DNA of 63,924 nt, filler included, from Folioceros fuciformis (Eukaryota): assembly GCA_049999805.1 (NCBI GenBank). It is 10 parts of 10 records of this genome, joined end to end, with 100 filler letters (N's around TTAATTAATTAA, not from the genome) between each part and the next. Parts side by side here need not be neighbours in the genome. Positions count along the whole stretch, not along the records: positions 1 to 20,560 come from JBNGIO010003018.1; positions 20,661 to 24,463 come from JBNGIO010003020.1; positions 24,564 to 34,630 come from JBNGIO010003021.1; positions 34,731 to 40,997 come from JBNGIO010003025.1; positions 41,098 to 45,446 come from JBNGIO010003026.1; positions 45,547 to 51,310 come from JBNGIO010003027.1; positions 51,411 to 55,175 come from JBNGIO010003028.1; positions 55,276 to 60,644 come from JBNGIO010003029.1; 2 more parts are not named here. One strand, given 5' to 3'. This document shows, in pieces, positions 7,310-60,644 of this stretch. Below the pieces are notes generated by a model. That model did no database searches and was not told where the DNA came from. It saw only the letters and a list, made by a program, of their open reading frames with translations. Every line of letters starts with the position of its first letter. The stretch's first letter is position 1. The position numbers were made by a program, and so were the translations under genes.

Positions 7310-7633
7310 AACCTTAATCCACGTCTAGGATGATTGCACTGGTAGGTCCACGCAGGTGAGAACCACGCCATGCATCCAATTGCGATGGATGGATTTCACG
7401 GTTCTCATTCACGTGCCCCCAGCCGCACAACAACACTGCAGTCCACTCAATCTTTCATAGAATCTACATACCCTACACCAGAATTTTCTGGAATGGAGGA
7501 TTTTCCACTTCTCACATATCTCATCACAATTTTTCATTCTTCTATGACCTGCAGCACCTGCAGACAGGAAAACAGTTCAGATCTGCATCCTCAATTTCAC
7601 AATTCTGCAATCTACACTTGCACATAGGTAGAA

Positions 7634-8162
7634 ATGGCAAGGAATAGGAGCAACAGACCTTGCAGATGTGACGTTCCCAAAAAACTCACATTGTTTCTTT
7701 GGGTGTTACAATTCACACCCTAGTTGCCCCCGTTGCATCCTACCTCCTGTGCCCGTGCTCTGCAGTCCTGTTCACAAAATTCAGCACTCTTTCCACAACG
7801 AAAGATCACACCAGAAGATGAGACCTAACCAATCTTCCATTAAAAATCAACTTGCACCCATCCTGTATAAGATACAAGTCTTAGGTGAAAATAGCTATGA
7901 ACAGCAACGCAAGACAAAGCTAGAAATCATCACTCTGCGTAAACAACTTGGTCAGCTTGAGAAGAAAATGGCATCGCTAACCCTAGCACACAATCAAAGA
8001 GACCAAAGAATCAAAGGCTCATATAAGAAAGTAGAAATGTCTTGTGATCCTTGCCCCAAACCAATTGATCTTGATCCTTACAAATTAGTCGTTCCAGAGC
8101 CAATAGAATCTGCACTCTCTGGCATTGCTACACTTTTTAATGACACCCACACCATACTATAG
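7634..8162 (+). CDS. Extra ORF upstream of gag: Cys/His-rich N-terminus plus coiled coil, probably with a 1-nt frameshift
   Basis: ORF 7668-8162 has the heptad-like segment QQRKTKLEIITLRKQLGQLEKKMASL. ATG 7634 (MARNRSNRPCRCDVPK) joins it if one A of the A6 run at 7679-7684 is removed. Confidence 0.55.
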
Positions 8163-8245
8163 GTGATACCCTGCAGTCTTTCATAGGTAGTGTCCTATCT
8201 GCACACACCACATACACTTTCTTAGTGATAGCAAAAACCACAAAT

Positions 8246-11200
8246 ATGGCAAAACTTGAATTCTCGTTTCGCGACCGCTTCAATGGGTCTGATTTCTCTA
8301 TATGGGAGATGCGTATGAAGGCCTTTTTCGAAGAACATGAACTAATGGGCATTGTAGATGGCAGTGTGGCAAAACCACAGGCCACTCATGCTGCACCAGG
8401 AACTCTAGCATCTAATGTGATCTCAGACTGGGTTAAGAAAGATAAGAAAGCAAGAAACATCTTACTATCAGCGCTGGATAAAAATATGATGCATCACACA
8501 TCAGGACAAGAGACCTCACATGATGTTTGGAAAATATTCCAGGAGATGTTTTCTGCCAAAGACCCTCAATCCCTCCTGAATACTACACGGCAATTGTATA
8601 ACCTTCGTATGAAGGAAAATGAGACAATCGAGCACCACGTGCATCGGTTCCGCACTCTACGTGCCAGACTTGCAGCTGCTGGAGATATCCTAACAGAATC
8701 AAGATCAGCTACAGTATTTCTAAATTCATTGCCTCCAAGTTATAGGCCTTTTGTCACATCTCATCTAGCTATATTGCGACAACCAGGTCAGGGAGCTTCA
8801 ATTACCCTCTCGGCGATTTTTGGTGCTGCCCTTGAAGAGGAGTCCAGCAGAATAGGTTCTGCAAAATCCTCGTTATCATCACAACAACAGCATGTGCTTT
8901 TTACCTCTCGTGGAAGAGGACGAGGTCGAGGTTTCAGACCTAATTTTGGGAGCAGAAGACCATACTCTGCAACACCCAACAATGCTGCAACATCCAGCAG
9001 TGGAGCACCACGTAGGGTTAAAGGTCCCTGCAATTGGTGTCGCATCCCCGGGCATTATGAGAATGAATGCCGTAAGAAAGCTGCAGGAGAGCCCAGGCGA
9101 CCTGCACCAGAGACAAGTGTAGCTGTTAGACCAGCCACCAACAATGCAAAGGCACCAGCAATTTTAGCAGTGTGTCTATCCCTAACAAAAGCAGATACTA
9201 ACATGTGGTTTCTTGATTCCGGTGCCACTAATCATATCTGTCAATCTAGGGAGATGTATCATACCTATAATCCATCAACAACAAATCAGTTCGTATTACT
9301 GGGAGACGATAGCGGTCTATCCATTCAAGGGACTGGTGAAATCAAGCTACTACTGAATCATGGACAGTACATCATGCTCAAGGGTGTATTACATGTGCCA
9401 AGTATGACAAAAAATCTGTTGTCCGTGCATAAACTAACCTGTGATCATAACTTGCAGATTACGTTCACTCCTGTTTCATGTACAGTTTCACCAATTTCAC
9501 AGCCATCACTTGTTCTAGCATGTGGTTACCCTTACCATGACTTGTATCATCTGCACATTACCATTGGTGACAGTAAAAAAACCACAAAACAGTCAAATGT
9601 TGCAGATGCATATCCAGCAGTTGGTACATCTTTTCTCTGGCACTGTAGGCTATGTCATCCCAGCTTAGCCTATCTCCAGCGTATAATTCAACATTCAGAT
9701 CTATACAAGGATGGTCTTACCTTTAAACCTGATCCTTCACTTTTTTGCGAGAGCTGTCAAGTGGGCAAACTTACACAGAAACCATATAATGATCCTTCTC
9801 CCACACGTGCATCATCCCTGCTAGAGGTCGTCCATTCAGATGTGTGTGGCCCTATGTCAACCTATTCTTTCGGTGGGGCCATTTATTTCCTCTCTTTCTT
9901 GGATGAATGGAGCCACTACTGTCATCTTTATTTCCTGAAAAGCAGACATCAAGTTTTCACAAAGTTTCAGGAGTACACTGCTATGCAGAGGCACAAACAG
10001 GCCATGTGATCAAGCGGCTTCGTAGTGATAATGCTAAGGAGTATCTAAGCGCAGAATTCACTGAATTTTGCAAGCAGAAAGGCATCATACACCAATTAAC
10101 TGTGCCTTATCATCCTTCTCAGAACCCTTATGCAGAACGCTACAATCGTACATTACAAGAAAGGACCAGAGCAACTTTGCAGCTAGCAGGACTTACACGA
10201 GGTTATTGGGCTGAAGCGGTGGATGCTGTAAATTACATTGCTAATTGGCTGCCCTTGAAGCCTCTTTATGATACGACCCCTTATCAGCGCTGGTCAGGCA
10301 ACAAACCACGCATTAGTCATTTACGTACCTTTGGAGCTGTGGCTTATGCATATGTGCCTTCAGACAAGAGACACAAGATGGATCATAGACCTACAAAGCA
10401 TGTGTTCATTGGATATTCTGATACAGTCAAGGGTTATAAACTATTCAATCCACTTACCCTGGAGCTCACCATAGCCAGAAGCGTAAGCTTTAATGAGGCT
10501 TTCATTTTGGAGTCTCATCTTCAATCCAGCAGCAGCCATGCTCCCTTGTCTACTGCCTCAGTCTATGGACACACACCACCTGAACATTTCAGCGACACAC
10601 ATGCAACCTTAGAACCTGACTCAGTTTTTCAGCACACAACCTATGATTCTGATCCTGATTCCGATACTGTAGAGCTAGCACAACCACTAGACATCTTACC
10701 TCCACAACCAGATCTAGCACCTGAGGAACCAGCTCTTCCTGAACATGCACATCCTGAACATGAACCTGCTGACCATGAGCCTGCACAGGAACCACAAGAA
10801 GATATGCCTGTAGCAGAAGATATGCCTGAACCACCTTTACATCATTTGGAAGCAGAACTCATACCTTTAGCAGATCAGATTCCATTGCGTAGGTCAGCTC
10901 GAATTCGTCGCCCTAGCAAATGGTTAGAATCTCCTTACACTTCAGGTGAGACATTTTATTCACAATTAGGTCCTAGTGCATCTGACAATGTGCATCCAAG
11001 TCTAGTTCATAGACACATAGCCCTCACTGTTATTGAGCCTCCTGATACACCACTCACATACAAAGAGGCACTTAGTTCTCCACAAAGTGCGGAGTGGCAA
11101 AAGGCTATAGACAGCGAATACCAGTCACTGGTTGACAACAAAACTTGGAAACTGGTAAAGTTACCACCAGATAGAAAAGCCATCACATCAAAATGGGTTT

Positions 11201-12864
11201 TTAAGTTGAAGCTAAATCCTGATGGCTCAGTGGCCCGTTATAAGGCCCGTTTGGTTGCACGCGGCTACACCCAAGTCCAGGGCATAGACTATAACGAGAC
11301 TTTCAGCCCTATAGTTAAACCCACATCAATGAGAATTCTATTATGCTACGCTATTCAACAAGGCTTTATAGTCCATCAGATGGACGTAAAGACAGCTTTC
11401 CTTAATGGGCCTCTAGATGAAATCATATATATGCGGCAGCCAGAGGGTTACATAAAGGATCCTACCTTGGTATGTGAACTTTTGAAATCTCTGTATGGAC
11501 TCAAGCAGTCTGCCCGCATTTGGAATGGCAGGGCAAATACAAAACTCCAAGAGCTAGGTTTCCAGCCCCTAGCAGCTGATTGCAGCGTTTACATCCTGCA
11601 AAGGAACAACCAGCTTTGCATTATAGCACTCTACGTTGATGACAACTTTATTTTTGCAAGCAATAACGACATCCTATCACAAGTTAAAAATCAGCTATCA
11701 TCAGAGTGGGATATGACAGACGTTGGACCACTCCGTTTTGCTCTAGGGATACAATTCTTTTTTGATCCAGCAGCTTGCACTGTTACACTACATCAGGAAC
11801 ATTTCATACGTCAGATTTTATCCAAATTCAACCTGCAGGACATAAATCCTGTCTCAACTCCAGTCGCAGCAGGAGAAAAACTGTCACTACAGGACTGCCC
11901 TGTGACAGACGAAGATAAAGCAGAAATGGCAGCAATTCCTTACCGTGAGGTTGTAGGAAGCCTCCTCTACCTTGCAGGTTGGACCAGACCCGATATATCT
12001 CAAGCAACTGGTGTGGTATCTCGTTATCTCTCCAATCCTGGAAAGCGCCATTGGGTAGCGGTCAAAAGAATTTTACGATATCTGAAAGGAACCAGACACT
12101 TGTGCTTGGAATATACCAAGGCAAATGATTTTACACTCACCTGTTATTCTGATGCCGACTGGGCGGGTGACGTTGATAGTAGGAAGTCTATAGCAGCCTA
12201 TTGTACGCTCTTATGCGGATCAGCCATCAGTTGGCAGAGTAAAAAGCTATCCACCATCAGTCTGTCCTCCACAGAGGCAGAATATAGCTCCTTGTCCCTT
12301 GCAGCCAGGGAGATCACGTGGATTAGACAATTCCTTGATGGCATATATGTTAAGCAGACCGAAGCGACAACCCTACTATGCGACAATCAATCTGCAATTG
12401 CCCTATCAGCAAACCCCATCCTTCATGCTCGGAGCAAACACATTGAAATCCAATTTCATTATATTCGACAAGCAGTGGAGCAGAAGATAATACAGCTGCA
12501 GTATGTACATACAACACAGAATGTGGCAGACCTGCTCACCAAGGGCCTGTCGAAGCAACTTCATGAGCAGCATAGATCTTTTTTAGGTCTTGAGGAGAAA
12601 GATAACCCACGACTTCACGTAGCCTCAGTAGCTTTAGTCACACGAACCCGAGCCTATCCTTCCATTCGCCTTACAGCAGTGTTGGGACAGCCTACTAGTG
12701 TGCATTGCTTGCCTCTTCAGCATCTCCTCAGATCTGCACCGGTCTCCACACATAGAATCTGTCAGACATTTAGTGAACTATGCCCGGATGAAGCCATACA
12801 TCAGAAGGCACGAAGCAGTTCTGCATCCGTCATGGATGAGCCCTCGCAGGCGTCAGTCAGCTGA
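8246..12864 (+). CDS. Copia gag-pol polyprotein with one frameshift (~9980)
   Basis: Gag DRFNG..W..RM; Zn knuckle CNWCRIPGHYENEC; protease FLDSGATNH; integrase HHCC, VHSDVCGP, RSDNAKEY; RT LYVDD; RNase H SDADWAGD, STEAEY, ADLLTK. Confidence 0.96.
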
Positions 12865-13130
12865 GTTTTCCGTCTTTCACACCTGTTCAGCTCCGCTCAC
12901 AGCTCCTCTCTTAAGGTTTTGTTTAGTTTGCAGATGCTTTCTCTTCCTGTGATGAGCGTGTAGCGCGTTTAGTCCTGGGGAGGGGGTTTTTTTTTTGCTT
13001 TCATGCAGCTATGAGATCAGCAGCGATCAGCTCGAGAGCGTGTGCGATGTTTTTCTGCTCAGTGCGCTCAGAGCGGCAAGCCGGATACGTTTTTTTTTCG
13101 TTTCGATTACAAGTTCGGCCTGAGAGGGGG

Positions 13131-13323
13131 TGTTAAGATATGAATCGTTATCCAGCCCTCACTGACAATCGAGCTCTGAAACGGGGCATACTTAAAGAAA
13201 CGGTTACACCTAGACTACTTTGGACCCCTTTTAACATCTTTCTTGATCTTAATGGAATTCATTCACTTCTGAGCACCTCGTCTAATCGTTTCTTCATGTC
13301 TGGTCTCGTTGACAAGCTTTTTA
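13131..13323 (+). repeat. 3' LTR preceded by polypurine tract gagaggggg
   Basis: Direct repeat of 7106-7297. Confidence 0.95.
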
Positions 13324-13439
13324 TAGTGCTTGGATGAGATTGCAGATCTGACTTTTATTGTTCGGGAGAGCTCGCAAGTATCAAGCTCAGAGCATGAGCA
13401 AGCTGGCACTCTTGTTTTGACGAGGTTGATTCTTGCAGG

Positions 13440-13630
13440 ATGAAGGAGGATTTTGGACGTGGAGTCTGGAGTAAATTGTCTCAGACTGAGTGGGGACGGG
13501 TTTGTGAGTCTGTGCTGGCCTTGGAACTCCTGGTGCAAGATGATGAATATGTTCCAGATTCTGTTTTCTATCGGGTTCTCAAGGGATGTATTGCGAGGAA
13601 AGATCTGATTGCAGCAGCAGCAGCAGCAGG
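13440..13630 (+). pseudogene. Truncated N-terminal fragment of a PLS-PPR gene ending in a (GCA)n run
   Basis: SKL...ALELLVQDDEYVPDSVFYRVLKGCIARKDL resembles SKL...ALELLLHSDCCSVPRSLFYNVLKKCVAERDL in the PPR at 26052-29258. Confidence 0.65.
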
Positions 13631-14531
13631 TGGCCAGGCAGCTCTTGAAGGATGAAGGGGCTGAGCTTATGAGGGGCCGGAAACAGAATCAGGAGCAGCT
13701 GCAAGCGCTGGATAAGGTGACCAAGAATATTACCGAATTGCGTGAAGAGCAGGATTGTTGATGTGGAATGTGACTATGGAACTGTTTCCAATTGCCATGA
13801 TTTCCCCGGAGCAGAAAGTAAGCATGTCCGAAACCTTGACAGTTGTGGGGGATAGTGTTTCTGATGAAGGACCAACTCTGCTGAAGGGTGCTAAAAGTGC
13901 CATTTCTCATTGGAAACCAAGGAGGCCTCGCTGTAACCGGGCCGCACAGAGCACAATGGAGGTCGGAAAGATCCCCCCTGTGTATGGTCTAGGTTTTTGG
14001 GGATCACACGAGTAGCATTGACCCCTTGATAAGTGCCAAAGAGACTTGAAAGAGACTTGATCTGGAATCCGAGACGACTGAAGGTCTACTTGGGAACCAC
14101 AGCCTCGAACATGTACAGATGTATGTCTCCCCGGCTGATCACTCACAGTCCTTAATGAATGGCGTGTCGAGTTGGGTTCCGTTGAGCCGGTTCATGGGCG
14201 GTGATTTGAAATCGTATGGCCCATAAGTGGCGCCCACCATTTCCCAGACCATATTTAGCTCGCCTTGCTGCTCTGGGTAAGGTTGTGGTAACTCGGCTTT
14301 CTACTTTGGGGAAGGTTCTGGTAGCTCGGTTCCGCTTTCGATTGGTTCCTAGGGGTCCGGGGCTGCGCCTACCTGGTTCTGCTGCTGTACAGACATAGAT
14401 CGGTGGGGATTTCAGCTTGAGCGCCGCCAACGCCGTGCCCACCCGCCTTTGCGAACGTCGCTGACAAGCAGGTATGCCTGCCCGCTCTCAGCTCGCCTCT
14501 CTGCTTCGGGTAAGGTTTGGGTAGCTCGGTT

Positions 14532-14635
14532 CGGGTTTGTTGCTGGTTTCTAGGGGTCCGGGTTTGTTGCTGGTTTCTNNNNNNNNNNCTGGTTTCTAGG
14601 GGTCCGGGTTTGTTGCTGGTTTCTAGGGGTCCGGG
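14532..14635 (+). repeat. 27-bp tandem repeat interrupted by a 10-N gap
   Basis: cgggtttgttgctggtttctaggggtc repeated on both sides of the gap. Confidence 0.9.
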
Positions 14636-14747
14636 ACTGCTTGACGGCTGGTCTGCTTGAGGCTGGTTCTGACGGCTGGTCTCTGATGTACAGACCTCTG
14701 TCGCCTCTCCCTGCCTAATCCCTTAGGACGCTGATTTGATATATAGA

Positions 14748-15437
14748 ATGGCTCCTGTGGCTCAAGACAACAAGAACCGCCTGAGTTCCATGTTCTATGG
14801 TCTTGTGTTTGATGTGTTTAAAAACTTAGACGAGACTCACGTGACCAGAGCCCTAGCTATCGGGGAACAGATCTCTCAGCTCGAGAGCACTATCCAGATC
14901 TCTCAGCTCAAGAGCACTATCCAGATCTCTCAGCTCGAGAGCACTGCCCAAGAGGCTCTTGCTGTGGGCTCTGTGAAAGACAGACTCATCCGAACTCTGG
15001 AGGAACATGTGGAACATGGGGTAAGGGTTTTGGAAGAACAGGTGCGGGATTTGCGCCTCAAGTTAGTACAGAGCAAGGGGCTTACAACGCTCCAAGGTTT
15101 GTGGGAACATCTTCAGGAGGAGCTCATTATTGCTCATGCTTTGGAGGGTAGGGATTGGTTTAAGAACTGGAAGGAGATCTTACATTCGAATAGGCCTCTG
15201 CAGGATTGCCTAGAGGCTTCAGCTGGATGGAGCCACCCGGTACAGGCAGCAAAGCTCGTTCAGATCTATAGGGTCCTGTCGGAGCATATTCATGAAGAAA
15301 AATCGAGGTTAAGGTTTGAGTTAAGTCGAACAGGCGGGTACATTCTCCTTGACCAACATCATCCATTGACATTTGACCAGGCATTGGCTACCATATGTGT
15401 AGCTTCTAGCTTAGGTTTGAATGTTAGACTTAGTTAG
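14748..15437 (+). CDS. Hypothetical coiled-coil protein (~229 aa) with an internal 9-aa triplication
   Basis: Open frame from ATG 14748; QISQL(E/K)ST x3 (27-bp repeat 14868-14945); helical C-terminal region ..KG..TLQGLWE..W..L..CL..W..IYRVLSEHIH. Confidence 0.6.
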   Translation: MAPVAQDNKNRLSSMFYGLVFDVFKNLDETHVTRALAIGEQISQLESTIQISQLKSTIQISQLESTAQEALAVGSVKDRLIRTLEEHVEHGVRVLEEQVRDLRLKLVQSKGLTTLQGLWEHLQEELIIAHALEGRDWFKNWKEILHSNRPLQDCLEASAGWSHPVQAAKLVQIYRVLSEHIHEEKSRLRFELSRTGGYILLDQHHPLTFDQALATICVASSLGLNVRLS

Positions 15438-15719
15438 ACTCTGGCTTAGCTTGGCTACAAACTGCTTAAGGTAAAGCAGTACCCAGTGATGGAGGGTGCT
15501 CCACACTTGTGAGTGTAGCATCATGGATGTCGTGCAAACACAACAGGCTAAGGTGAAGGCCCAAGTGAGTGATGCACAGCCAGATGATCGACTTCTACCA
15601 TACCACCTTCAGGGCAGGAAGGGTATGAGTCAGCTGGAAGATGAGGTCCAAATAGACTTGAAGCGAGCAACCGGGCTGACAACAAGAGGAAGCGGAATAG
15701 GGTGCTACACCTTATTGGG

Positions 15720-16070
15720 TCCAAGCATGCTGGAAACTGCCACACTACACGTACATGTTTATCAAATTGTTGGCGGCGACCACACCACTTTGATACCTTG
15801 TTTCATAATTTCTGCATGAAGCAGCTTTCCTTCCTTTCTTCAAGGCAACGGTGCCTACTCTTGCACATGCCTGCAAGAGGCACACAAACATCACATGCGT
15901 GGGTATAGCCTTTCCTTGTTCTTACATAATACTGTGAAGGTGAAGAGCCCTTTCCTTGTTCTTACATAACACTGTAAAGGTGAAGAGCTTCTTGCCCCAA
16001 GCCTTGCTGTGAATATCCTGAAATGAGAACAGTCCATGTCACCACATCTTTGTGATGAAGTCCATTGTCA
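15720..16070 (-). pseudogene. PLS-PPR pseudogene fragment
   Basis: Minus strand reads KDVVTWTVLISGYSQQGLGQEALHLYSVM*, VMFVCLLQACARVG..GKLLHAEI and ANNLINMYV*CGS, with stops, frameshifts and a ~39-bp internal duplication. Confidence 0.88.
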
Positions 16071-16549
16071 TGCCCAAAAATTATGGTCCTGAAAAGGGCA
16101 TCTTTCGGTATTTCGGTTTTTGCTAAATTGTGCGACGGTCTGAAAATTGCGTAGGGTCGGATCTTTCGTCTCGGACCGGAGTGGTTTCCGCACTAAGTCC
16201 GTTGCGACACCAGACTAAGACCATGTCCGAGAGCCCGGAGTGCAACTCGGATCGGGCTGTGCTTTCGGCTCTGGGATAACTGAATTCGGCCGGATTCGAA
16301 GCTGAGCTGGTTACCGGAGTCAGCTTCGGGCGTCGACTTCCGGACTCCGGCCAGAGAGTGGAGATGAGACGGCATCCCCAACACCTGTGACGGACGACTG
16401 AGATCGGTCGCGGTTCTGGGTGCGGCTGGAAGACTGGGCGGTAGTGAGCTGTGGAGTCGGCGGGCGGCCATGTCCGAGATCGAGCAAGTGTTGATTGCCG
16501 TTTGCAAGACTCACAAGTTGTCCAGAAGGGGACTTGCTTTGGGATGAAG

Positions 16550-16621
16550 CACGCGGTGGATTGGTGGGCACTGGGGATTTTGCTCTACGAGATGTTGTAC
16601 GGGCGGACGTCGTTCTGCGGT
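16550..16621 (+). pseudogene. Isolated AGC-type Ser/Thr kinase subdomain IX fragment
   Basis: HAVDWWALGILLYEMLYGRTSFCG; no other kinase subdomains visible nearby. Confidence 0.75.
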
Positions 16622-16981
16622 TGGAAGCCAGCACTCTGCCACTCCGCGCAGCCACGACCATACCAAGAGCGACCCCATAGCCAGAGTTTCAAGGTGGACA
16701 GTGACCGCGACAGAAGACCCCACCTGTAGCATTACTCCTACAACGGTGCTTGCAGCAAGGTGATGTAGGTGCTGGACAAGGGTAGGGCGGTGGCACTGGC
16801 TGCATCCATTGGTTGCATGTCCGTGGCGGGGGACGCTTAGGTGTGGGAGATCAGCTCGAGATTCGGGCCTCGATGGGGTAGGCACCACAACGGTGTCGAC
16901 TTGGCCGCCCCCACCTCGCTGCGGATGCCGGGGAAGTCACGTTCACGGGATGGGAACCCAGCGGCTATGGCNNNNNNNNNN

Positions 16982-20560: not shown

Positions 20561-20660
20561 NNNNNNNNNNNNNNNNNNNNNNNNNNNNNNNNNNNNNNNN
20601 NNNNTTAATTAATTAANNNNNNNNNNNNNNNNNNNNNNNNNNNNNNNNNNNNNNNNNNNN
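20561..20660. other. Artificial contig linker (44N-TTAATTAATTAA-44N); also at 24464-24563, 34631-34730, 40998-41097, 45447-45546, 51311-51410, 55176-55275, 60645-60744, 62086-62185
   Basis: The same 100-bp structure occurs nine times; the 12-mer has stop codons in all six frames. Confidence 0.98.
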
Positions 20661-40997: not shown

Positions 40998-41097
40998 NNN
41001 NNNNNNNNNNNNNNNNNNNNNNNNNNNNNNNNNNNNNNNNNTTAATTAATTAANNNNNNNNNNNNNNNNNNNNNNNNNNNNNNNNNNNNNNNNNNNN

Positions 41098-45446: not shown

Positions 45447-45546
45447 NNNNNNNNNNNNNNNNNNNNNNNNNNNNNNNNNNNNNNNNNNNNTTAATTAATT
45501 AANNNNNNNNNNNNNNNNNNNNNNNNNNNNNNNNNNNNNNNNNNNN

Positions 45547-48500: not shown

Positions 48501-51310
48501 CCGCGCCTGCTTACAGAGCCACCTCTGTTCTAGGTCTGGTCCATGCGGACATCTCCGGACGGATACAAGTGCCCTCAATCGGTGGTTCCAATTACTATCT
48601 CACCTTGACGGACGACTACAGCCGATATACCTGGACGTTTCCCATGCAGAGAAAGAGTGACGTTCTTGAAATCTTCAAGGAATGGCTCCCTGCAGTGCAA
48701 CGTCAGACAGGTTTGTTATTGAAGTACCTGCGTACTGATAACGGGGGTGAATTCGTCAATGATGCTTTTGATGCATACCTTGCTGCGGAGGGGATCCAGC
48801 GACAGTTGACTGTTCCTTATACACCCCAGCAGAACGGGGTCTCGGAGAGGAAAAACCAGTCTTTGCTCTCTATGACGCGGAGCATGTTACTCTGGTCGGG
48901 TCTACCTCAAGTGTACTGGGCAGAGGCCATCTCTGCTGCGACGTATGTTCTGAACAGAATTCTTACGAGCTCTGTCCCGAACCAGACTCCTCATGAGGCC
49001 CTCCATAAGAAGAAACCCAGCCTGCTGCACTTACGAGTTTTTGGCTCTCGTGCGTATGCTTTCATTCCTGCAAAGAAACGCCAGAAGTTAGACCCACGAG
49101 CTCAAGCCCTAGTTTTTGTGGGGTATAGTGAGCAGGCCAAGGCATATCGGCTGTATGACCCAGCTACAAGGAAGATGTTCCTTGCACGCAGTGTCACCTT
49201 CATCGAACCTCACTCTCCATTGCTTGCTCAAGCTCCACAGACAGAGGGAGTTACGGCTGTCCCTGAGGAGACAGAGGGAGCTACTACGTACCCTGTGCCT
49301 GAAGACCAGGTTACCCATCACATGTATCCTCAAGACACCGAACCGGCTGTGAGACTTTTGGATGCCGCTGTGGAGACTGACGCACTGCCTGCTGACCCTC
49401 CTGCAACGGAACCACTCGCTGCATTAGAAATTCAGGCGGCCCCGGATCCTGCAGCCCTAAATGCCCCTTCTTCCCCTGCTCAGGCTGACGAGGACTTCCC
49501 AGTAGTAGCCGATGAGCACGACTCAGACTTCATCGCGGATGAAGACATACCTGAGGACGTCCAACTACCAATAGTCCCTCCCGTTGAGATTACCCGTGAT
49601 CCTGAAGAAGTTGCTCCTCGCCGCTCAGGACGCCACCGACCACCACCTGATCAATGGGCCGAACCACGCTATTAGTCTATTGACTTTCGTCACCGGGCAG
49701 CCCCAGCTACTACTCACACTGCTCCATCAGCCATACCAGATGAGCCACGCACCTTGGTTGAGGCTTACAACGGACCTGATAGCAAGCAATGGTATGCGGC
49801 TGTTGAGGACGAGTACCAGTCATTGATTAAAAATAAAACCTGGACTCTTGTGGACTTGCCACCTGGCCGCAAACCCATTTCATGCAAATGGGTCCTCAAA
49901 CATAAATTGAATGCTGAGGGCAAGATTGCCAGGTATAAGGCCCGTCTTGTGGCCCGTGGTTTTACCCAGGTGGAGGGTCTGGACTATCAGGAGACATTTT
50001 CTCCTGTTGTTCGATCTCAATCTATTCGCATGCTACTGGCTCTGGCTGCAGAATTTGACTTGGACTTATGGCAGATGGATGTCTGCACAGCATATCTCTA
50101 TGGCTCTTTAGATGAAGAACTGTACATGCAACAACCGGAAGGGTATGTTAGCAAACAGCATCCTAAGAAGGTCCTTAAACTGCTGAAATGCATTTACGGA
50201 CTTAAACAGTCTGGACGGGTTTGGTATTTCACCATTCATGTTTACCTGCTAGGCCTGTCGTTTGTCCAAAGTGCTGCAGATACAAATGTTTACAGATTGA
50301 CCAGGGGCACTGCCTTCGTCATCGTTGCCTTATATGTCGATGATGTTATCCTGGTCACGAACAGCAAAGCATTGTTAGCAGAAGTCAAGCAGATGCTCAG
50401 CGACAGATTTGAAATGAAGGACATAGGCGATCTAAAATTCTGTTTAGGGATACAGATCCTCCGCGTTCGTGAAGAAGGGCTACTCATTATCCATCAGCAC
50501 AAATATATCCGTGAGATCCTGCATAAGTTTAAGATGGATCAAGCTCGCCCAGCTGTTACACCTTCAGCTGTGGGCATCAAATTGACGCTTTCTCAATGTC
50601 CTACCACCACTGAAGCAAAACAGGATATGGCAGATGTCCCTTACAGGCATGCTGTTGGCAGTCTCTTGTTTGTGGCAAATTGGACTCGCCCCGACATACA
50701 GTATGCAGTGAGCACCGCTTCCCAATTTATGGAAAACCCTGGACGCCCTCATTGGGTCGCCGTAAAGCGAATTTTCCGTTACCTGCAGGGCACTCACACC
50801 TATGGGTTATTCTACAAACGGAGTGGTACAGGCACATTCCATCTCTCTGGTTTCACGGATGCAGACTGGGGTTCGGACAGTGATGGACGTCGCAGTTTGT
50901 CAACCTACTGTTTCTTGCTGGCCAATGCATCTGTGAGTTGGAGCTGCAAGAAGCAAACGACAATAGCCCTGTCCTCGACAAAGGCTGAATACAAATCTCT
51001 TACAGAAGCCTCCAAGGAGGCAGAGTGGGCTCGACAGTTTCTGGCTGATCTTGGTCATCCTCAACTTTCTCCCACTCCTATCCTCTGCGACAATACTGGT
51101 GCTCTTGACCTTGTTGCCAATCCCCGGTATCATGCTCGCACGAAGCATATCGAAATACAACACCATTATATCCGAGATGTATCTGCACATGGCGTGGTGA
51201 GGGTTGGTTATGTCGATACCGAGCTGAACACTGCCGACATCTTCACCAAGCCGCTCCCTAAGCTCAAGCACTATACACACATGACGGGACTCGGCCTGCA
51301 GGATTACTCT
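45547..51310 (+). mobile_element. Copia element: partial 5' LTR, PBS, extra ORF, gag-pol with two in-frame stops
   Basis: PBS tggtatcagag at 45777-45787; gag KDRFNGTKY; CNWCGIAGH* (TAG 47762); YLDSGATAH; RTDNGGEF; TAG 49673; LYVDD; FTDADWG. Confidence 0.96.
45825..46391 (+). CDS. Extra ORF between PBS and gag (188 aa, Arg-rich start, C-terminal coiled coil)
   Basis: MPRRGGSV...; ILVNEMKHLAEQLTTKIKEFTDYLLRLE. Confidence 0.55.
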   Translation: MPRRGGSVNQGRGSHFYKCDNQRQFPKTVPAEINALAYYLAGGTGHDPYWSQDRERAELLRRFYRQDQISGNQRKGRRHRQSYTPFAPDSFCAAPREVLPGNPSNYVGGDPVQGLHCSAVPRQLNFPIHETCTSTDHSHTRILVNEMKHLAEQLTTKIKEFTDYLLRLEIADGIPQASVLPDHPHSAA

Positions 51311-51489
51311 NNNNNNNNNNNNNNNNNNNNNNNNNNNNNNNNNNNNNNNNNNNNTTAATTAATTAANNNNNNNNNNNNNNNNNNNNNNNNNNNNNNNNNN
51401 NNNNNNNNNNGTCTCAACGACAGTGGGATAAGTGTGGCCACTAAAGGTGGAACCCGTTGGCAATCAGTGCCTGGGGTTTTGCCTCCACA

Positions 51490-52870
51490 CCTCTTGATAG
51501 GATTGTGGATTGTGATTGCTGAGCAGCTAAGGAAAGGTATGTAGCAACTAAGTTTGATGATGAAGCAGTGTCAAGGGAAGGCTCAGTGGCATGTCAGGCT
51601 ACAACTCATGTAGAAGAGTTGGATACCTCATAGCCATCTAACCATGTAGGAGGGCGTCTAAGCCTAGTGGAATGACGGCGTTCGGGGATGACAGAAAATG
51701 TGGGTATGATTTCATTGGTAGGCATTGGAATAGTGGGGATATGTTCCTCTTGAGCTTGCAAATGGTCAGCTCGAGAAGGAGAGGATTCAGATGGCAATAC
51801 GACTATTGGAGAGGGTAAGGCAGGTGAAGAAGTAGGGGCCCCCTCAAGGTAAAAGGGACATGAAAGATGTCAAAGAGGTCAAAGGCTTGATGGTCAAGAG
51901 ATGGAATAGAAAGGAAAAGGCCTTGTTCATGAAAATGGACTCTACGAGAGAAGAAGATTTGGTGAGTAGAAGGATCAACTAACTTGTAGTCCTTAACCTC
52001 ATCCGAGTAGCCAATAAATATGAGCTTCCTTGCCTTGTCATCCCATTTGCCGTGCAAAGAGTCCAAAATATGGGCATAAGCTGAGCTCCCAAATATTCAA
52101 AGATGTGATATACGAGGAAGAGAGCTATTCCAGCGAGCATAAGGAGTGGTTTGATGAAGGTCTTTAGCAGGTAATCGATTTCTAATATAACAGGCAGTGG
52201 AAATAGCTTTTGCCCAATATCCTCGAGAAAGACTAGAAAGCTTAAGTAGGCAGCGTCCAATCTCCAAAATGCTGCGGTTGTAAAGCTCAGCAAAAGAATT
52301 CTGTACTGGTGTATGTGGTACAATGAGTTGTCGGAGAATGCCTTTAGAGGTACAAGCCTCATGAAAGGATAAGCTCGTGTACTCTCTGGCGTTGTCTGAA
52401 CACAATTTGCGCAAAGGAAATCCTAGCTGCCACTCAGCCATAGTAACAAAGTCGATGAAGTGCTCCAACGTATTGCTCTTATGCCTAAGAAAGTAGATGT
52501 GACAATATCTGGTCCACTCATCCAGAAAGGTTAGGAAGTAAAGGTGTCCTCCAAAAGATCAAGTGGACATAGGACCACAAATGTCCAATGGACAGACTCA
52601 AGAGGGTCAAGAGCTCGACTTGGATGTGGATTGTTGAAGGGCGTTTGGTTCACCTTCCCATATGGGCAAGTCTCACAGAATATGTCCTTAGAAATATGAC
52701 ACGTGAGAGGATCCCTATACATGTGTAGATTGGATAGTTGGCTAAGGTATTTATGGCTGGCGTGCCCTGCACGACAATGCCATAATCAGGTCTCAGAAGT
52801 GGGTGGTTTGTGGCATGAAGCTCGTCTACGAAGGTGTTAAGATGATACAAACCTTGTAGTAGGGTACCCT
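51490..52870 (-). mobile_element. Highly degenerate copia integrase fragment
   Basis: FCETCPYGK, LCSDNAREY, VPHTPVQNSFAE, LIFIGYSDEVKDYKL, RRHSTRLRRPP spread over shifting frames. Confidence 0.88.
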
Positions 52871-53338: not shown

Positions 53339-54240
53339 TCACACAGGGTGCATGATAGCCAGTGCTTGTTCCCTATCTTCTGTGTGTCTTACGAAGCTAA
53401 CAAGTCTCTCTAGTTGACTTTCCTCAGCAGTAATGCGGTTAGGCTCTTGAATGCAAAAAGTAGGAACTTTAAACTCAACAGGCATTACTGGAAAATGACC
53501 GTAGGTGAGGTAGTACGATGTCTGTTGAGTCGTGATTCTTTTCGCAGTTTTGTATGCCCAAAGTGCTAAATGGAGCTTTAGATCCCAGTTGTATGCATAC
53601 TCAACTATTAGTTTGTTGAGGATCTTGTAGAAGAGCCCGTTTGCCTTCTCTGTCAAATCGTTAGCCTTCGGATTATAGGGAGTTGTCTTCCTGTGGCGAA
53701 CGTTGAAGTAGACCGTCATGTGAGAAATGATGTCATTCATGAAGCGCGAACCTCGGTTGCTGATTAGCTCCAGTAGGCATCCATAGCCAGCAATCACCAG
53801 CTTGTACAAGAATCTGGCCACCACATGAGTTGTGTCAACCTGCAGGGCTTGTGCCTCCATTGTACGCGTGCGGCAATCGGTGGCCACAAGGATGTACTAA
53901 TTCTAGAGGTGCTTGTCTTGGGTTGGATAGGTCCAACAAAGTCAATGCCCCACTCCTCAAATGGGGCCAAGGCCAAGATAGGAACTAAGGGCCATTGAGT
54001 TGTGGCTGATGGCTTGCCAACCCGCTGGCAAGCATTGCAGTGTTTCACAAATTCTCTTGCATCCTAATGCATGCTCGGCCACTAGTACCCTGTTTCGAGA
54101 AGTTTTCTACACGTGATGTGTGCAGCGAAATGTCCTCTAGCCTCTCCTTCGTGTCATTTAGTTAGCACCCGCAGAATCTTCGCCTCCGTTACCCACACCC
54201 TTTCTCTTCCGTTCGGCCTTGCTTGATACATGCTGTCTCT
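53339..54240 (-). mobile_element. Ty3/gypsy integrase fragment
   Basis: CNACQRVG, PFEEWGIDFVGPI, LISNRGSRF, TTPYNPKAN, ALWAYKTA. Confidence 0.9.
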
Positions 54241-55275
54241 GTGACGAACGCCGCACTGCTGTGGAGGCAAAACCTCGGGCATTGATTGCCGACGGGTTCC
54301 ACCTTTAGTGGCCACACTTATCCCACTGTCGTTGAGACATTGGGTTTCGTTCCCACGAAAGATCGATGGGGTTCCTTGCTGCTGTGGATGGAGGGTCGGA
54401 CTTGATCGACTCGATGATGGATTCGAGGGCTCCCCTCCAGCTCCGATCAGGCGTAGGACAGGCCTCGCTGTCCGACGGTCAGTTGCACCTCTCTCGGTGC
54501 CTACAAACTCACTCTTGTCACTACAACGACCCTAACCTCTCAGATCTGCGTCTTCCCTCACTCACTTCACTCACTCTCTTACTCCAGCAACAACACCAGC
54601 AACCAGCAACGACACCATTACCTTCTACACTTCCCTACTGACTCCTCCTACCCGACAAGAGTCACTAGACAAACCCCAAAGGAAAGAAAGAAGGGAACAC
54701 ACACCCCTCTTGGATATCTCCTCCCCACAACCTTACCAGACGCCATGAGACATGGCCGGCCTATAGCACTTGTCCAAGCAAGGAACAAGAGTGGACAGGT
54801 CGAGAGAAAAACACATCCTTTACAATCAAGAGCTAGGGGGAAGCCACTTCACCCTGGTCATTACACCTTGTGATCCTACCAGACACTGTACAGCCGGCAA
54901 CACACGGCTTGCGATCCTACCAGACGTTACACAGCCGGCAACATACTGTAGGTCCTAAACCAAGTTGGGACAGACCACAAGAGCTCATGAAGAGAGGACC
55001 TCCAAGAGCTCACAAAGATATAGACTGACTCCCACGATACGGTATACGTGTCAGTACGTATTAAATATGTATCTAAACCATATAAAATACAAGGGTGGTA
55101 TACGTATACAAACCGTATACGGTCTCTAAAAAAAACCTTACATGGAGGCAAGGGGAGGGAGCGGGATCGGGATGGNNNNNNNNNNNNNNNNNNNNNNNNN
55201 NNNNNNNNNNNNNNNNNNNTTAATTAATTAANNNNNNNNNNNNNNNNNNNNNNNNNNNNNNNNNNNNNNNNNNNN

Positions 55276-58200
55276 CGAATTGGGAGTGTCAGCTGCAGAT
55301 TTCCTTCGCCGTGAGGGAACTGCAGCTCGGGTATGTATCAGAATTAGGTTGAGGAGCAGTCTTGAATACCGAGCGCCTCCAAATGTATCATATGTTTGGA
55401 AGCAGGTAGGTATTTCGTAAGCAGATCAGCTGGATTCAGATCAGTTGAAACATGCTGAATTGTCACTTCTTTCTGTTGAACAAAATGCCTAATAAAATGA
55501 TGTTGCACCTCAATGTGTTTTGTGCGGGCATGAAAGCGTGGATTAGCTGTCATAGCAATTGTAGATAAATTGTCACAGAAAATGGGCGTAGGCTGTAGCT
55601 GAGGAAAGCCAAGTCCAGCAAGAAAACAGCGCTCCCAAATAGCCTCTTTAGAGGCTTCAGTTAAAGCCTTATACTCTGCCTCAGTCGAGGAGAGAGCTAC
55701 AGAAACCTGTTTCTTGGAACTCCAATGGATGGCAGCACCAGAGAGGGTAAAACAATATGCGGATATGCTTCGACGCACATCCGGATCTGTGGCCCAGTCA
55801 GCATCAGCCCAACCAGAGACGGCAAGTGTGTCCTTTCTTCGCCCCCGGAAGCATAGCCCATAATGTAAAGTGCCCCGTAAATACCGAAGAATGCGTTTAA
55901 CGGCACCCCAGTGCTCCTTACCAGGATTGTCCAAGAATTGAGAAACGGCACTAACAGAATACTGGATATCAGGACGGGTCCAGCAGGAGATATAATTAAG
56001 GCACCCGACCGCATGTCTATAAGGAACAGTAGACATGGCTGCCTTCTCAGAATCTGTCTGAGGACATTGGGCAATGGACAATTTAACACCAGCAACACCA
56101 GGAGTGGCTACAGGCTTGGCAAACTCAAGTTGAAAACGACGAAGAGTTTCTAAAATATATTTAGACTGATGTAACATGATGGTGTTAGAAGAAAAATCTC
56201 GAACCAACTGTACACCAAGTACAAAGGTGAGGGTGCCAATATCCTTCATGTCAAACTTGGAATGAAGCATCTGTTTAACCCAAGCCAGTAATGCAGGATC
56301 ATTGGAAGCCAGTATAGCATCGTCAACATATAAGGCAAGCACCACCATACCACTAGCCTTGGAATAGAAATAAACATTAGCATCACCTGGATTTTGCAGA
56401 AACCCAAGAGACTTGAGGTATGCGTCAATGGTTTTGTACCATTCCCTAGCAGACTGTTTAAGACCATATATGGTCTTCTTGAGACGACAAACCCAGTCAG
56501 GATGTTCAGGGTCTACAAAGCCTTCAGGCTGTTGCATGTATATGTCCTCCTCAAGCTCCCCATAAAGAAAAGCAGTACATACATCCATCTGTTGCAAATC
56601 CCAGGCATGAGCTGCTGCAAGAGCAATAATCATCCGTATGGATTGAGTTTTGACCACTGGGCTAAAAGTTTCTGTGAAGTCAACTCCAGGAATTTGGGTA
56701 AAACCCCGTGCTACCAAACGGGATTTATACTTAGCAATCTCTCCATTTGCATTCAACTTATGTTTGAAAACCCACTTGGAGCCAACGACTTTACGTCCAG
56801 AAGACAAAGGACATAATTCCCAAGTGTCATTTTTAATAAGCGAGTCATACTCATCTTTGATGGAAGGGATCCAGAAATCCTTATCTGGACCAGTAATTGC
56901 CTCATGATATGAACGAGGCTCCGACTTGTTGATAGAAGAAGGTATCTCTGTAGAAGAAACATGAACTTGAGGAAGAGAAACACCAGCTTGATGTCTGCGA
57001 AAATCAATTGACTTGTATGGGGGTTCCGCCCATTGAGCTGGAGGTAATCGTGTCCTTTGTGGATACCGAGGCTCCGGCTCTATCACATCTGGAAGAATAA
57101 CAGGGAGGACCGGTTGAGGAGGTTCCCCATCCCCTGGAAGTTGCAGACCATCATTAGGAGGAATTGTATCCTGAAGGACATGTAAATCATCAGCACCAAA
57201 TCCAGCCACAGCTTCATCATTGTTAACTTCAACATCAGCTATGGGGTGAGGATCTGCTAACATAGGAGGATCTACTGCTGCTGCAAAATCCTCGTCTAAA
57301 CCAGGAGCTGAAACCTGTGGATCATGAACAAGAGGGACAGGAACTTGAGCATAATCTTCAGGAGCTTCATCTTGTGGAAAAGAAGTATAACCATCCTGGT
57401 CTGATATTTCAACATGTGTGACAGTCTCCTGATTATGTAGTAAGGAATCAAGATAAGGCTTGGCAGGAGAAGTAAGCTCCTTAAATGTCACACTTCGAGC
57501 AAAAATAGCTGAATTAGTAAGCGTGTCGTACAGCTTGTATGCCTTTGATTCTTCTCCATAACCCACAAATAGCAGAGATTTGGCCCTGTCCTCCAACTTC
57601 TTACGTTTTTCCTCTGGCACATAAGCGTAGGCTGGAGAACCAAAGACCCGAAGATGTAAAATACTGGGCTTCCTTTGCCAAATCACCTCAAAAGGAGTCT
57701 TGCCTTCCACCGCACTTGTCAGGAGACGATTCAAGATATAGGTAGCAGTGACCACCGCCTCTGCCCAGAAGGCCTTGCTTAGACCAGACCATTCTAGCAT
57801 GCTTCTGGTCATGCCTAGCAGGGTCTGATTTCTCCTCTCAGCAACGCCATTCTGCTGCTGAGTATAAGGAACTATAAGCTGCCTTACAATTCCATTGTCC
57901 AGCAAGAACTGAGTAAAATGGGCATGGACAAATTCTGTCCCATTGTCTGTACGAAGACATTTCAACAAGAGTCCTGTCTGACGTTGAATCATGACGAGCC
58001 ACTCCTTAAAGACATTAAAAGTATCAGACTTTAACCTAAGAGGAAAAGTCCAGGAATACCTACTGTAGTCATCCGTAAGTGTTAAATAGTATTGTGCACC
58101 CCCTAAACTTGGAACATGGATTTTTCCAGAAGTATCCGCATGCACAAGATCTAAGACCTTAGATGCACGATGGGCAACAGTTCTAGGAAAAGGAACTTCT

Positions 58201-60644
58201 TTCTGCTTAGCAATTACACATGCATCACACAAGGGTAAGTTCTTAAAACACTTAGGCAGCGGCTCTCTATGGCAAGACAGATTTGCCATTTTGATAAGTT
58301 TATCCCGGTTTGCATGGCCAAGTCTAGCATGCCAAAGACGGGTGGGAAGCAGACAGGCCTGCAGCTTGGGATGTCTGAGCAACATGAACAACGTCACCAG
58401 ACAGGCAAGTTAAGTCAAGCTGATACAAGTCATGGACTAAAGTACCATTTGCTACGACCTGCTTATCCCCCCCTCTGCTTATAAGCTGACAAGCAGACAA
58501 GGAGAACATCAGGTCGTAAAGACGAAGGGACATCAACTGACTGACGGAAATCAAATTCTTAGCCATGTGCGGGACGTGCAGAACATTTTCTAAATGCAAA
58601 AGTGAGCAATCATTCAAACGAAACACACACGTACCATGACCTTTGATGCTCAAGCCTGTACGTGTAACTTCATCACCTAACAGAACTTTGTCAGAGGTGA
58701 GAGATGCCTTGTAATAATGGAATATGGACCGATTATTACAGATGTGAGACGTGGCCCCAGAGTCTAGGTACCAAGTGTGTGGGGAGTGAAATGCAGATGA
58801 GACAAAACAAACTGTCATTACAACAGGTTGCTTGTGAGGTGTCGACGAAGATGGTCGGTCCTTGGTGGCAGCAACATGTGCTTCAGCCTGTCGAGAAGGC
58901 TTCTCAGCTTTGCGTGCCTCACCAGCTTTCTTTTTCCTGCATTCTCTTTCCCAATGGCCCTGGATACCACACCAGTTGCATGATCCAGCCCGTTTTGTCG
59001 AGCCAGGTTTAAAACCTGCTCCAGAGGGAGGCCGTTGTTTGCTAAACCTGCCCTTGGTGAACAAAACCTTGTCAGTCTTCGTTTTGCCACCGTGGTAAGT
59101 GGACGTGAGTCTGCTTTGTTCCTCCTGCAACAGAGCTCCAATCACGTCGGAAAGATTTATGTTTGTGGGTTGTCCTGCAGCTCGTGCAGCATCAGCAGCC
59201 CGGACTGTAGTTCCATAGCTAGAAACAAAAGTTTGGTAGCTAGGAGGCAAGCTCGTCAGCAGCTGACTAACAGCGTCGAGCTCAGGGAACTGTGAACCAA
59301 GGTGGATTAGTTGGGCTCGCAATTGTTTGAAGCGGATGACAAAAGGAGACACCTTGTCACCTTCCTTGAGACGTAAGGAAAACAGTTCACCACGAACAGC
59401 ACACATGGTAAGAATATTCTTAGCCTCATATGTCTGTGTGAGAAGAGTCCAGATCTCTTCAGCCTTGGTAAGAAAAGCGACATCGGCGAGAAGAGATTCG
59501 TCCAGCCCGCTAATCAAGACGGCGCGTGCAACGTAATTTTAGGTTCGCCCACTTGTCCTTTTCTTCTTGTGTGGCAGATTGTGCCGGTTCCTTAAGCGTG
59601 CCAATAACAACTCCCCATACATGCCGAGCTTGCAGGGCAGCTGTCATGCGCACCTTCCAGCCTTCAAATTTCAGGCCATTGAATCTGTCTCGCTCCTTAA
59701 ACTCCACAGAATAAGATGGCTGTGGGATGACAGGAACTGCAGGAAGAGAGGGGACAGTTCCACCTCCGCCTCCTCCCCCTCCACCTCCACTTCCGGTACC
59801 GCTTCCTCCTCCGCTTCCAGTAGCCATGACCTTTATTTCAGAAGGAGATCAGGACGGATGATCAGACCGCCCAAGATCTTCTTCGAAGAATGGATCATGC
59901 TACAAGAAAGGTTGACAGTCGGAAGAGAAGCGCGTAGCGGGAGAGAGGTAAAGTCAGGGTTTCTAGATTTTGCAGCAGAGAGCGCTTGTGACAATTGGTA
60001 GCACGCTGGATGTCACCGGAGTCATGCTGCAGGGGCGTCCGCAACAACCAAAAGAGAACCAGTCTTCAGGCACCCGCAACCAGAGTTCAGGAAGAATCAC
60101 AGCTTCGAGGCAAGGGTGCACCGCTTCAGGTTCAAGATGTGCGATGCTTCAGACTGGGAAGGCCCACGAGACAGATTTCTTCAGGCCCGCTCAACTGCAG
60201 ACACCGCTTGAGATCTCGAGCGCATCGCTGGATTGGAAAGAACACAACTTCCACGATGGATCGCGGATCCCAGCCAGAATCATGCCTTGCCGAACGTCGC
60301 TTCAGGCCTGGCGATGCCGCGTGCCTGAGCTGAACGCTACGGTGCCGTTGGTGGCTCCCGAGATCTGGATTTCTCGCGATTGAAAACAAGCACCTGCAAC
60401 AAATCTGCGACTGTGGAAGACGCTCCGGAATGAGAGGTAAGATTCCGCACCAGTTCTGTCAAATCGCGCACTTCCTCAAGCAAGGTTGTTTGTATTCGCA
60501 AGAAAAGATCGATGGCCGCCAGAACTTCTTTGTGTCGAGCAAATTGCACCTCACCCTGGTGGGATAAGGCCGCCAACAATGCTGACTTTGTAGCTATCAA
60601 TCTGTCGTCGAGCACTCTGTATGCTCCTACAATTTCAAGTAAGT
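55276..60644 (-). mobile_element. Copia element: extra ORF, gag (59827) to RNase H (55344), two frameshifts
   Basis: Gly-rich gag start then KERDRFNG; CNWCGIQGHWEREC; YLDSGATSH; 1017-aa INT-RT-RH frame; frameshifts near 59525 and 58345. Related to the 45547-51310 element (shared PPxQWAEPxY.SIDFR). Confidence 0.96.
60337..60644 (-). CDS. 3' part of an extra coiled-coil ORF upstream of gag (5' end cut by linker)
   Basis: HKEVLAAIDLFLRIQTTLLEEVRDLTELVRNL. Confidence 0.45.

Follow-up and report, generated by a model that had tools for sequence, protein, structure and literature searches.

Sense-strand open reading frames upstream of gag in four Ty1/copia elements of Folioceros fuciformis as possible relics of a coiled-coil accessory gene

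A 63.9-kb stretch of DNA from Folioceros fuciformis (63,924 nt, hereafter the window) contains four Ty1/copia retrotransposons, E1 to E4, that share one type of gag, and in each of them the leader ahead of gag holds a long open reading frame (ORF) on the sense strand. These upstream ORFs, U1 to U4, lie just 5' of gag, in the interval from the primer binding site (PBS) to gag, as the first-pass annotation of the window had described; every one of the four visible leaders of this gag type has such a frame, which in E1, E2, and E3 is the longest sense ORF. What is observed is their position, strand, and length, a helix pattern present in all four, a start shared by two, and a depletion of ATGs in two of the leaders. 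We read the upstream ORFs as relics of a gene for a small basic coiled-coil accessory protein located 5' of gag, a reading that we hold at even confidence.

Upstream reading frames in four copia elements

The Pfam families of E1 appear in the order Retrotran_gag_2, Pol_BBD, gag_pre-integrs, rve, SH3_retrovirus, and RVT_2, which is the Ty1/copia arrangement of gag, protease (PR), integrase (INT), reverse transcriptase (RT), and RNase H (RH), and the same gag-pol families were detected in E2, E3, and E4. The sole complete element of the four is E1 (7106-13323), which displays the long terminal repeats (LTRs), target-site duplication, and PBS of a Ty1/copia element; its LTR pair is 97% identical (repeat comparison 7110-7301 vs. 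13136-13327) and is flanked by CAGTG and TAGTG. Each of the four is defective: the frame changes within the integrase of E1, E2 is broken at many points and has lost an internal part of gag, a stop codon interrupts the zinc knuckle of E3, and frame changes also occur in E4. The start of E2 adjoins an N10 gap at 16982, with the PBS falling within the gap and seen as a loose end in sequencing-run contigs, and the 5' end of E4 lies outside its contig. Searches inside the window with blastn and tblastn revealed no further copies of the four elements.

The motifs that had tied the four elements together in the first pass are present in all of them, DRFNG at 8273, 17804, 47015, and 59675(-), and the CNWC-type knuckle (CNWC..GH....C.KK) at 9029, 18002, 47735, and 58939(-). 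A fifth knuckle is located at 61537(-). Identity among the elements is 31-47% in gag, and in the RT-RH portion of Pol it is 43-56% among the four compared with 39-44% to another copia lineage in the window, where the pol sequence used for E2 is that of a different element on the next contig. The shared gag motifs speak for the proposed single lineage, but the proposal remains weak, as the RT-RH identity is barely above that to another copia lineage. Judged from their sequences, the four are old, distinct families with common gag motifs, and at these levels of gag and pol identity an alignment of a fast-evolving protein of 150 aa is not expected.

Arginine-rich starts and products of 150-190 aa had been attributed to three of the upstream ORFs. 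This description stands for U2 (151 aa) and U3 (188 aa) and fails for U1, in which the ATG of the MARNR start is out of frame and the first ATG of the long frame gives 114 aa; position 7668 is GTG. Before its first ATG, the U1 frame (7689-7800) is rich in Cys and His, with the spacing C-x3-C-x6-C-x2-C. The MPRR start common to U2 and U3 is found at only 4 of the 2019 ATGs in the window, and among the 68 ATG-ORFs of at least 100 codons in the window a start of the form M[AP]R[RNG] occurs in these two ORFs only. Since the Arg codons differ (AGA AGA in U2, CGG CGA in U3), the MPRR start is not a conserved DNA word. The first halves of U2 and U3 each carry a net charge of +8, and the second halves carry -3 and -4, respectively.

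The heptad-like helix that the first-pass annotation had noticed could be located at one site in each of the four ORFs (Table 1). A score for hydrophobic residues at positions a and d and polar residues elsewhere, taken over a proline-free window of 21 residues, is 1.45-1.60 in U1 to U4. Values of at least 1.45 were reached by 1 of 51 null ORFs of 100-250 codons from the window, by 9 of 355 antisense ORFs from 80 metagenome copia loci, and by 2 of 38 chunks of 150 aa cut from real gag-pol and from a pentatricopeptide (PPR) protein. Among ten ORFs in other frames or on the antisense strand of these leaders, the maximum was 1.03, and composition-matched shuffles reached the score of the ORF in 2, 9, 7, and 2 of 400 trials. 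The difference between the upstream ORFs and 406 null ORFs has a Mann-Whitney p value of about 5e-4, and four variants of the score gave values of 4e-4 to 6e-3.

Structure prediction, which the first-pass annotation had proposed as a check, yielded one confident helix each in U1 and U3. With AlphaFold2 in single-sequence mode, U1 formed one long helix at residues 89-129 (7896-8018; block predicted local distance difference test (pLDDT) up to 91), and U3 formed one at residues 137-171 (46233-46337; pLDDT 80-94); both proteins are predicted to be disordered outside the helix. The ad hoc score and the AlphaFold2 helices together display the features by which a coiled coil is recognised, that is, an a/d pattern, at least three heptads, and a proline-free helix. 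The upstream ORFs contain no membrane segment, the highest Kyte-Doolittle mean over 19 residues being 1.21.

From the PBS to the gag ATG, the leaders measure 936 nt in E1, at least 780 nt in E2, 989 nt in E3, and at least 817 nt in E4. Sense ATGs are strongly depleted in those of E3 (5 ATGs) and E4 (4 ATGs) relative to shuffles (13.0 +/- 2.7), with as few ATGs occurring in 2 of 1000 shuffles for E3 and in none of 1000 for E4, while CAT is present at normal numbers on the same strand (12 and 14, respectively). ATGs are absent from the 386 nt that separate U3 from the gag ATG and from the 84 nt that follow U1. Each gag has its own ATG, well placed just ahead of the conserved N-terminal motif, and the upstream AUG has A at -3 and C at +4. 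A non-standard way of translating gag, as had been suggested, finds no support here; with their low number of ATGs, the E3 and E4 leaders fit ordinary scanning together with leaky scanning or re-initiation.

Three further observations concern these leaders. The E4 spacer contains five copies of CTGAAG within 237 nt (60069-60305, minus strand), a clustering seen nowhere else in the window, where that strand has 28 sites in 64 kb; the cluster may be a repeated cis element. Reading by eye ahead of the U3 ATG (45722-45827), we noticed several short ORFs in succession: the first starts at 45722, crosses the PBS, and stops at a TGA that overlaps the next ATG (TGATG), and a 6-codon ORF comes after it, with 2 nt between its end and the U3 ATG. 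RNA folding of the spacers was uninformative, with z of -2.41 in E3 (equally good folds in 2 of 100 shuffles) and 0.05 in E4.

Gene relics, chance frames, and other explanations

A number of results weigh against the upstream ORFs as relics of a gene, and most of them favour an explanation that we regard as unlikely but as a serious contender: U1 to U4 would be chance open frames in ordinary long leaders, that is, 5' untranslated regions with cis signals for packaging or dimerisation, and the helices and MPRR starts would be a coincidence picked by eye. The heptad score is ad hoc and was devised after the sequences had been viewed. Frame length can be read in two ways. When 1000 dinucleotide shuffles were made of each leader, the length of its longest sense ORF was reached in 5, 16, 26, and 429 of them (E1, E2, E3, and E4, respectively), so that the lengths exceed shuffles (5-26 of 1000) in the first three. 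In same-size pieces of the real unannotated DNA of the window, by comparison, such ORF lengths are unremarkable, occurring in 15.5%, 18%, and 7.4% of cases for E1 to E3; combined by hand with the Fisher method, and with about 0.5 entered for E4, this comparison gives a p value of about 0.09. This background is conservative, because tandem repeats and perhaps unannotated genes are included. The same DNA can be read without stops in further frames as well, in E2 on the antisense strand (136 codons) and in a second sense frame (120 codons), and in E4 as antisense ORFs of 138 and 113 codons. Taking the shuffles, the real-DNA pieces, and these other open frames together, length alone is therefore not decisive. 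In U1, the first 62 codons lack an ATG, and eight ATGs lie upstream of 7818.

Coding signals are mixed. A codon-usage score trained on the gag-pol ORFs of the window is 0.005 for U1, -0.019 for U3, and -0.056 for U2, with reference values of 0.061 +/- 0.035 for coding sequence and -0.042 +/- 0.053 for null ORFs, and thus groups U2 and U3 with non-coding ORFs and places U1 in between. The period-3 signal is at coding level in U2 (3.40) and U4 (3.47), intermediate in U3, and null-like in U1 (1.65), given medians of 3.26 for coding sequence and 1.49 for null ORFs, and position-specific base composition (G1-G2, GC1-GC2) takes intermediate values in the upstream ORFs. Recognition by a language model was low, 1248 for U3 and 1862 for U1 read from its ATG, where 91 of 100 proteins of known families reach 2300. 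Among the differences listed against the run contigs, a single one falls within U2, 17279 C>T, which is present in all run contigs and converts Leu to Phe at the first position of codon 69.

Homology searches with the upstream ORFs came back empty. That the four could not be aligned by eye agrees with the pairwise comparisons of U1 to U4, which detected no similarity at the protein or DNA level (best blastp E 0.1; Smith-Waterman and global z of at most 2.2). HMMER found no match of U1 among 1.84 billion representatives, and word searches of a protein collection with U2 and U3 gave 0 matches each. The collection probably lacks this genome, because the E3 gag ORF (328 aa) found nothing there either, a control that a length window makes uninformative. 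No Pfam family scored above threshold in the upstream ORFs, and a PDB search returned nothing below E 0.07. In a protein atlas, U3 had no usable match, and the matches of U1 were at most 0.83. Metagenome contigs contained 352 copia relatives, of which the best 80 were kept, at identities of at most 35% and none of this gag type; viral contigs held no relatives, and prokaryote genome contigs held 15 copia fragments (L081-L095) of at most 37% identity, again none of this gag type. These fragments lie in assemblies labelled Modestobacter, Blastococcus, Trujillonella, and other bacteria and are probably eukaryotic contamination.

The metagenome copies also offered leaders for comparison. In 12 of them (11 of one unrelated copia family, and L055), leaders of 255-576 nt hold 0-2 ATGs where about 3-8 are expected. 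For the unrelated family taken by itself (L008, L016, L018, L029, L031, L038, L045-L047, L049, and L058), the leaders are 473-576 nt long, with 0-2 ATGs against about 7 expected, and 11 of 11 copies have a stop-free frame without ATG, about 60-110 codons long, whose TGA overlaps the gag ATG (AAAATGACT). By analogy with these copies, ATG-free leaders are taken to be normal where ribosomes scan to gag, and frames of appreciable length may evidently stay open in them, a point in favour of chance. Dead copies of that family gain 0-2 stray ATGs per leader of about 500 nt; by the same analogy the U3 ATG could be recent, and, the copies here being dead, the other ATGs possibly are too. The leaders of E1 and E2, in addition, are not depleted in ATGs.

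What chance explains poorly is the coincidence of features in the same ORFs. The heptad feature is found in 4 of 4 upstream ORFs but in about 2.5% of the 406 control ORFs, a difference robust to the score variants, and MPRR opens two of the four despite its rarity among the ATGs of the window. Moreover, U2 and U3 have the same architecture, a basic half and then a helix. If the frames did arise by chance, E1 to E4 would be ordinary decayed copia copies with long leaders.

Two other origins were considered. The upstream ORFs could be relics of a long N-terminal Gag extension, in which the basic region and helix were once in the gag-pol frame and were severed by decay. Extensions of this kind exist, since about 80 aa precede DRFNG in the gag of E3 and include a short amphipathic segment and a run of prolines, and the gag of E4 has a Gly-rich extension; frame breaks are also present elsewhere in all copies. 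In all four elements, however, either the frame of the upstream ORF differs from that of gag or 84-510 nt with stops separate the two, and every gag has its own well-placed ATG. Four independent separations would be required, and we consider this origin improbable. Still harder to credit is the capture, by transduction, of pieces of host coiled-coil genes into the leaders, independently in each family. LTR retrotransposons are known to capture host sequences (PMC7264820), and U1 has weak sub-threshold Pfam matches to the coiled-coil families Dor1 (E 0.0017), Frigida, and End3. The searches described above nevertheless disclosed no host-like relative of U1, U2, or U3, and it is unlikely that fragments of one kind were captured four separate times at one position, so that we hold this explanation to be highly improbable.

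Possible expression and known counterparts

If the upstream ORFs are relics of a gene, a fuller model can be put forward, tentatively and with slightly less than even confidence: a land-plant Ty1/copia group would encode a fast-evolving, basic 5' protein with a single coiled coil, expressed with the help of leaky scanning or re-initiation and serving the RNA as an oligomerising, nucleic-acid-binding cofactor, a counterpart of the small ORFs (sORFs) of the Drosophila MDG1 group. Translation of the four ORFs, their homology, and any function are inferences only. The first-pass annotation had likewise argued for a copia lineage with a fast-evolving accessory protein. An extra sense ORF with an unusual heptad helix in each visible leader and the MPRR start of U2 and U3 are in keeping with that view, whereas homology of the four finds no backing in the pairwise z scores.

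In the reading held at even confidence, the ORFs would form a third gene of this Ty1/copia group, or would have formed one in the active elements from which these dead copies descend. Such a gene would encode a protein of about 110-190 aa in which the N-terminal part is basic and disordered (with MPRR in two families), the C-terminal third holds an amphipathic heptad-patterned helix, and a membrane segment is absent. The full-length genomic RNA would be bicistronic. Initiation at the upstream AUG would give the accessory protein, and Gag would come from ribosomes that scan past this AUG, with its A at -3 and C at +4, or that re-initiate; the ATG-poor or ATG-free RNA between the cistrons (386 nt in E3, 84 nt in E1) would aid the initiation of Gag. 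By analogy only, the helix could mediate self-association and the basic part could bind nucleic acid, and the protein might assist the RNA of its own element in packaging, export, or chaperoning.

Extra ORFs are well known in plant LTR retrotransposons, where they lie 5' or 3' of gag-pol and in both orientations (PMC7264820). In the survey of Neumann 2019, extra ORFs were counted only if they had at least 250 codons; they were present in 582 copia elements, in 45 groups, and the forward ORF 3' of pol in SIRE is the only one named as a feature of a copia lineage (PMC6317226). In the main-text passages of that survey, a 5' forward extra ORF is not assigned to any copia lineage (PMC6317226), in accordance with the statement of the first pass that extra copia ORFs are mainly 3' of pol. 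An extra ORF is reported to be absent from 63 of the 65 copia families of common bean, and the remaining two have SIRE-like 3' ORFs (PMC4093653). The literature searched, the coverage of which is incomplete, contained no description of a copia element with a small coiled-coil ORF in a 5' position.

In size and layout, the closest described system is the MDG1 group of Drosophila (412, Mdg1, Stalker, and Blood; Ty3/gypsy) (PMC11952523). Its sORF1 and sORF2 resemble U1 to U4 in being small (about 110 and 70 aa), sense, and 5' of gag; they reside on the unspliced full-length transcript, their translation has been shown, and they are too divergent for sequence searches (PMC11952523). The hosts and superfamilies differ, MDG1 elements being insect Metaviridae and the elements described here plant Ty1/copia (PMC11952523). 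A transmembrane segment together with an N-terminal myristoylation motif characterises sORF2, and sORF1 is a predicted helix-turn-helix (PMC11952523). U1 to U4, by contrast, lack this FAST-like combination; they have one long heptad helix and no membrane segment, and U2 and U3 start with MPRR and not with MG.

The env-like ORF of SIRE (Sirevirus) is similar in being an extra copia ORF that falls into many unalignable sequence groups, but it lies 3' of pol (eORF-3'F) and has at least 250 codons (PMC6317226). No ORF of the SIRE type is present between the end of pol in E1 (12864) and the 3' LTR (at about 13132), an interval of about 270 nt; E2 to E4 are without a visible 3' end.

Upstream sense ORFs have also been described in gypsy elements, including ORF0 of rice Retrosat2. 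Retrosat2 belongs to the gypsy superfamily. Like U1 to U4, ORF1 of Ogre/Tat and ORF0 of Retrosat2 are sense ORFs between the 5' LTR and gag-pol and, in the available accounts, have no relatives outside the elements; unlike U1 to U4, they belong to gypsy elements and are much larger, some having domains such as the plant mobile domain. An architecture consisting of a coiled coil only is not among the features of these 5' ORFs reported in the same accounts. The lineages Osser and Bryco of REXdb are described as having a PBS complementary to half of tRNA-Met (Neumann 2019, PMC6317226). Ordinary AUG-free copia leaders have few ATGs, as do those of E3 and E4, and have no long ATG ORF, while E3 has one directly behind its PBS and the leaders of E1 and E2 are not depleted.

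Copia elements are treated as two-gene (gag-pol) machines. A small 5' accessory protein, if real, would extend the copia repertoire by one gene, would explain the long leaders of these families, and would stand in plants as a parallel to the upstream sORFs characterised recently in insect gypsy elements. Annotation of transposable elements would then be systematically missing short leader ORFs.

Layout of the window and neighbouring features

The window is a pseudomolecule of ten contigs, 1.3-20 kb long, with joins of N44 + TTAATTAATTAA + N44, a six-frame stop linker. As the window is a chain of short joined contigs, adjacency across the linkers is meaningless, and E1 to E4 are not physically linked as shown. 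The coordinates are collected in Table 1.

Table 1. Positions of the four copia elements, their upstream ORFs, and other features in the window
Feature	Positions	Strand	Remarks
E1 5' LTR	7106-7297	+	~192 nt; repeat family D7
E1 PBS	7298-7309	+	TGGTATCAGAGC
E1 leader	7310-8245	+	13 ATGs
U1	7632-8162	+	stop-free frame, 176 codons; first ATG 7818, giving 114 aa; heptad segment 7917-7979
E1 ORF starting MARNR	7634-7723	+	29 codons; frame differs from U1
E1 gag-PR-INT-RT-RH	8246-12864	+	two overlapping frames, 8246-10009 and 9907-12864
E1 3' LTR	13132-13323	+	purine tract just before; repeat family D7
E2 leader	16982-17761	+	17 ATGs
U2	17075-17530	+	ATG ORF, 151 aa, starts MPRRRR; heptad segment 17393-17455
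E2 gag-PR-INT remnants	17762-20560	+	many frame breaks; contig end at 20560
E3 partial 5' LTR and PBS	45547-45787	+	PBS TGGTATCAGAG at 45777-45787
E3 leader	45789-46777	+	
U3	45825-46391	+	ATG ORF, 188 aa, starts MPRRGG; heptad segment 46251-46313
E3 spacer between U3 and gag	46392-46777	+	386 nt, zero ATG, GC-rich
E3 gag-pol	46778-51310	+	to contig end; stop codon in zinc knuckle 47762-47764
E4 gag-pol	55344-59827	-	frame changes near 59510-59538 and 58324-58409
E4 leader	59828-60644	-	
E4 spacer between U4 and gag ATG	59828-60336	-	4 ATGs
U4	60337-60644	-	3' part of ORF, 101 codons + stop, truncated by contig end; heptad segment 60430-60492
Tandem repeat	3838-4136		99 nt x 3 copies
Tandem repeat	5822-6098		39 nt x 6 copies
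PPR-related fragment	15861-16192		
2OG-Fe(II) oxygenase gene	23137-24380	-	several exon-like ORFs; Pfam DIOX_N, 2OG-FeII_Oxy
Intronless PLS-class PPR gene	26055-29282	-	1076 codons, E motif, 312-nt internal period
Ty3/gypsy-type integrase fragment	53339-54063	-	same contig as copia integrase 52097-52558
Linkers	20561-20660, 24464-24563, 34631-34730, 40998-41097, 45447-45546, 51311-51410, 55176-55275, 60645-60744, 62086-62185		

Ty1/copia elements are abundant in the window. Both sides of the linker at 20561-20660 encode an identical RT motif, and the element from 20661 onward therefore differs from E2. An ORF at 53339-53896(-) was considered as a further leader ORF and rejected, as it is part of the gypsy-type integrase fragment. 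The PPR gene and the 2OG oxygenase gene mark the source as a land plant, and the PPR gene and the related fragment point to a large PPR family in it.

Word depth in the sequencing-run contigs (runs X1-X4), examined over 7100-18500, is about 16-18 for E1 compared with about 178-382 for the E2 family, so that E1 is low-copy and the E2 family about ten-fold more abundant. The broken E2-type element thus appears to exist in some ten or more nearly identical copies, and its amplification is possibly non-autonomous. Depth in the flank at 13196-17005 is in the hundreds, and run contigs connect the left flank of E1 straight to the sequence past the 3' LTR (7090-7105 to 13324-13330, with a loose end at 13325). 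From the direct flank joins and the high flank depth, it follows that E1 lies within a repeat of high copy number, the other copies of which are empty sites. Sequencing run X3, from the same sample, displays C>T (597) and G>A (638) in massive excess, resembling a bisulfite library. In run X4, presumed to be RNA, contigs cover neither U1 nor U2, which speaks neither for nor against expression. The 99-nt and 39-nt tandem repeats yield long chance ORFs in several frames.

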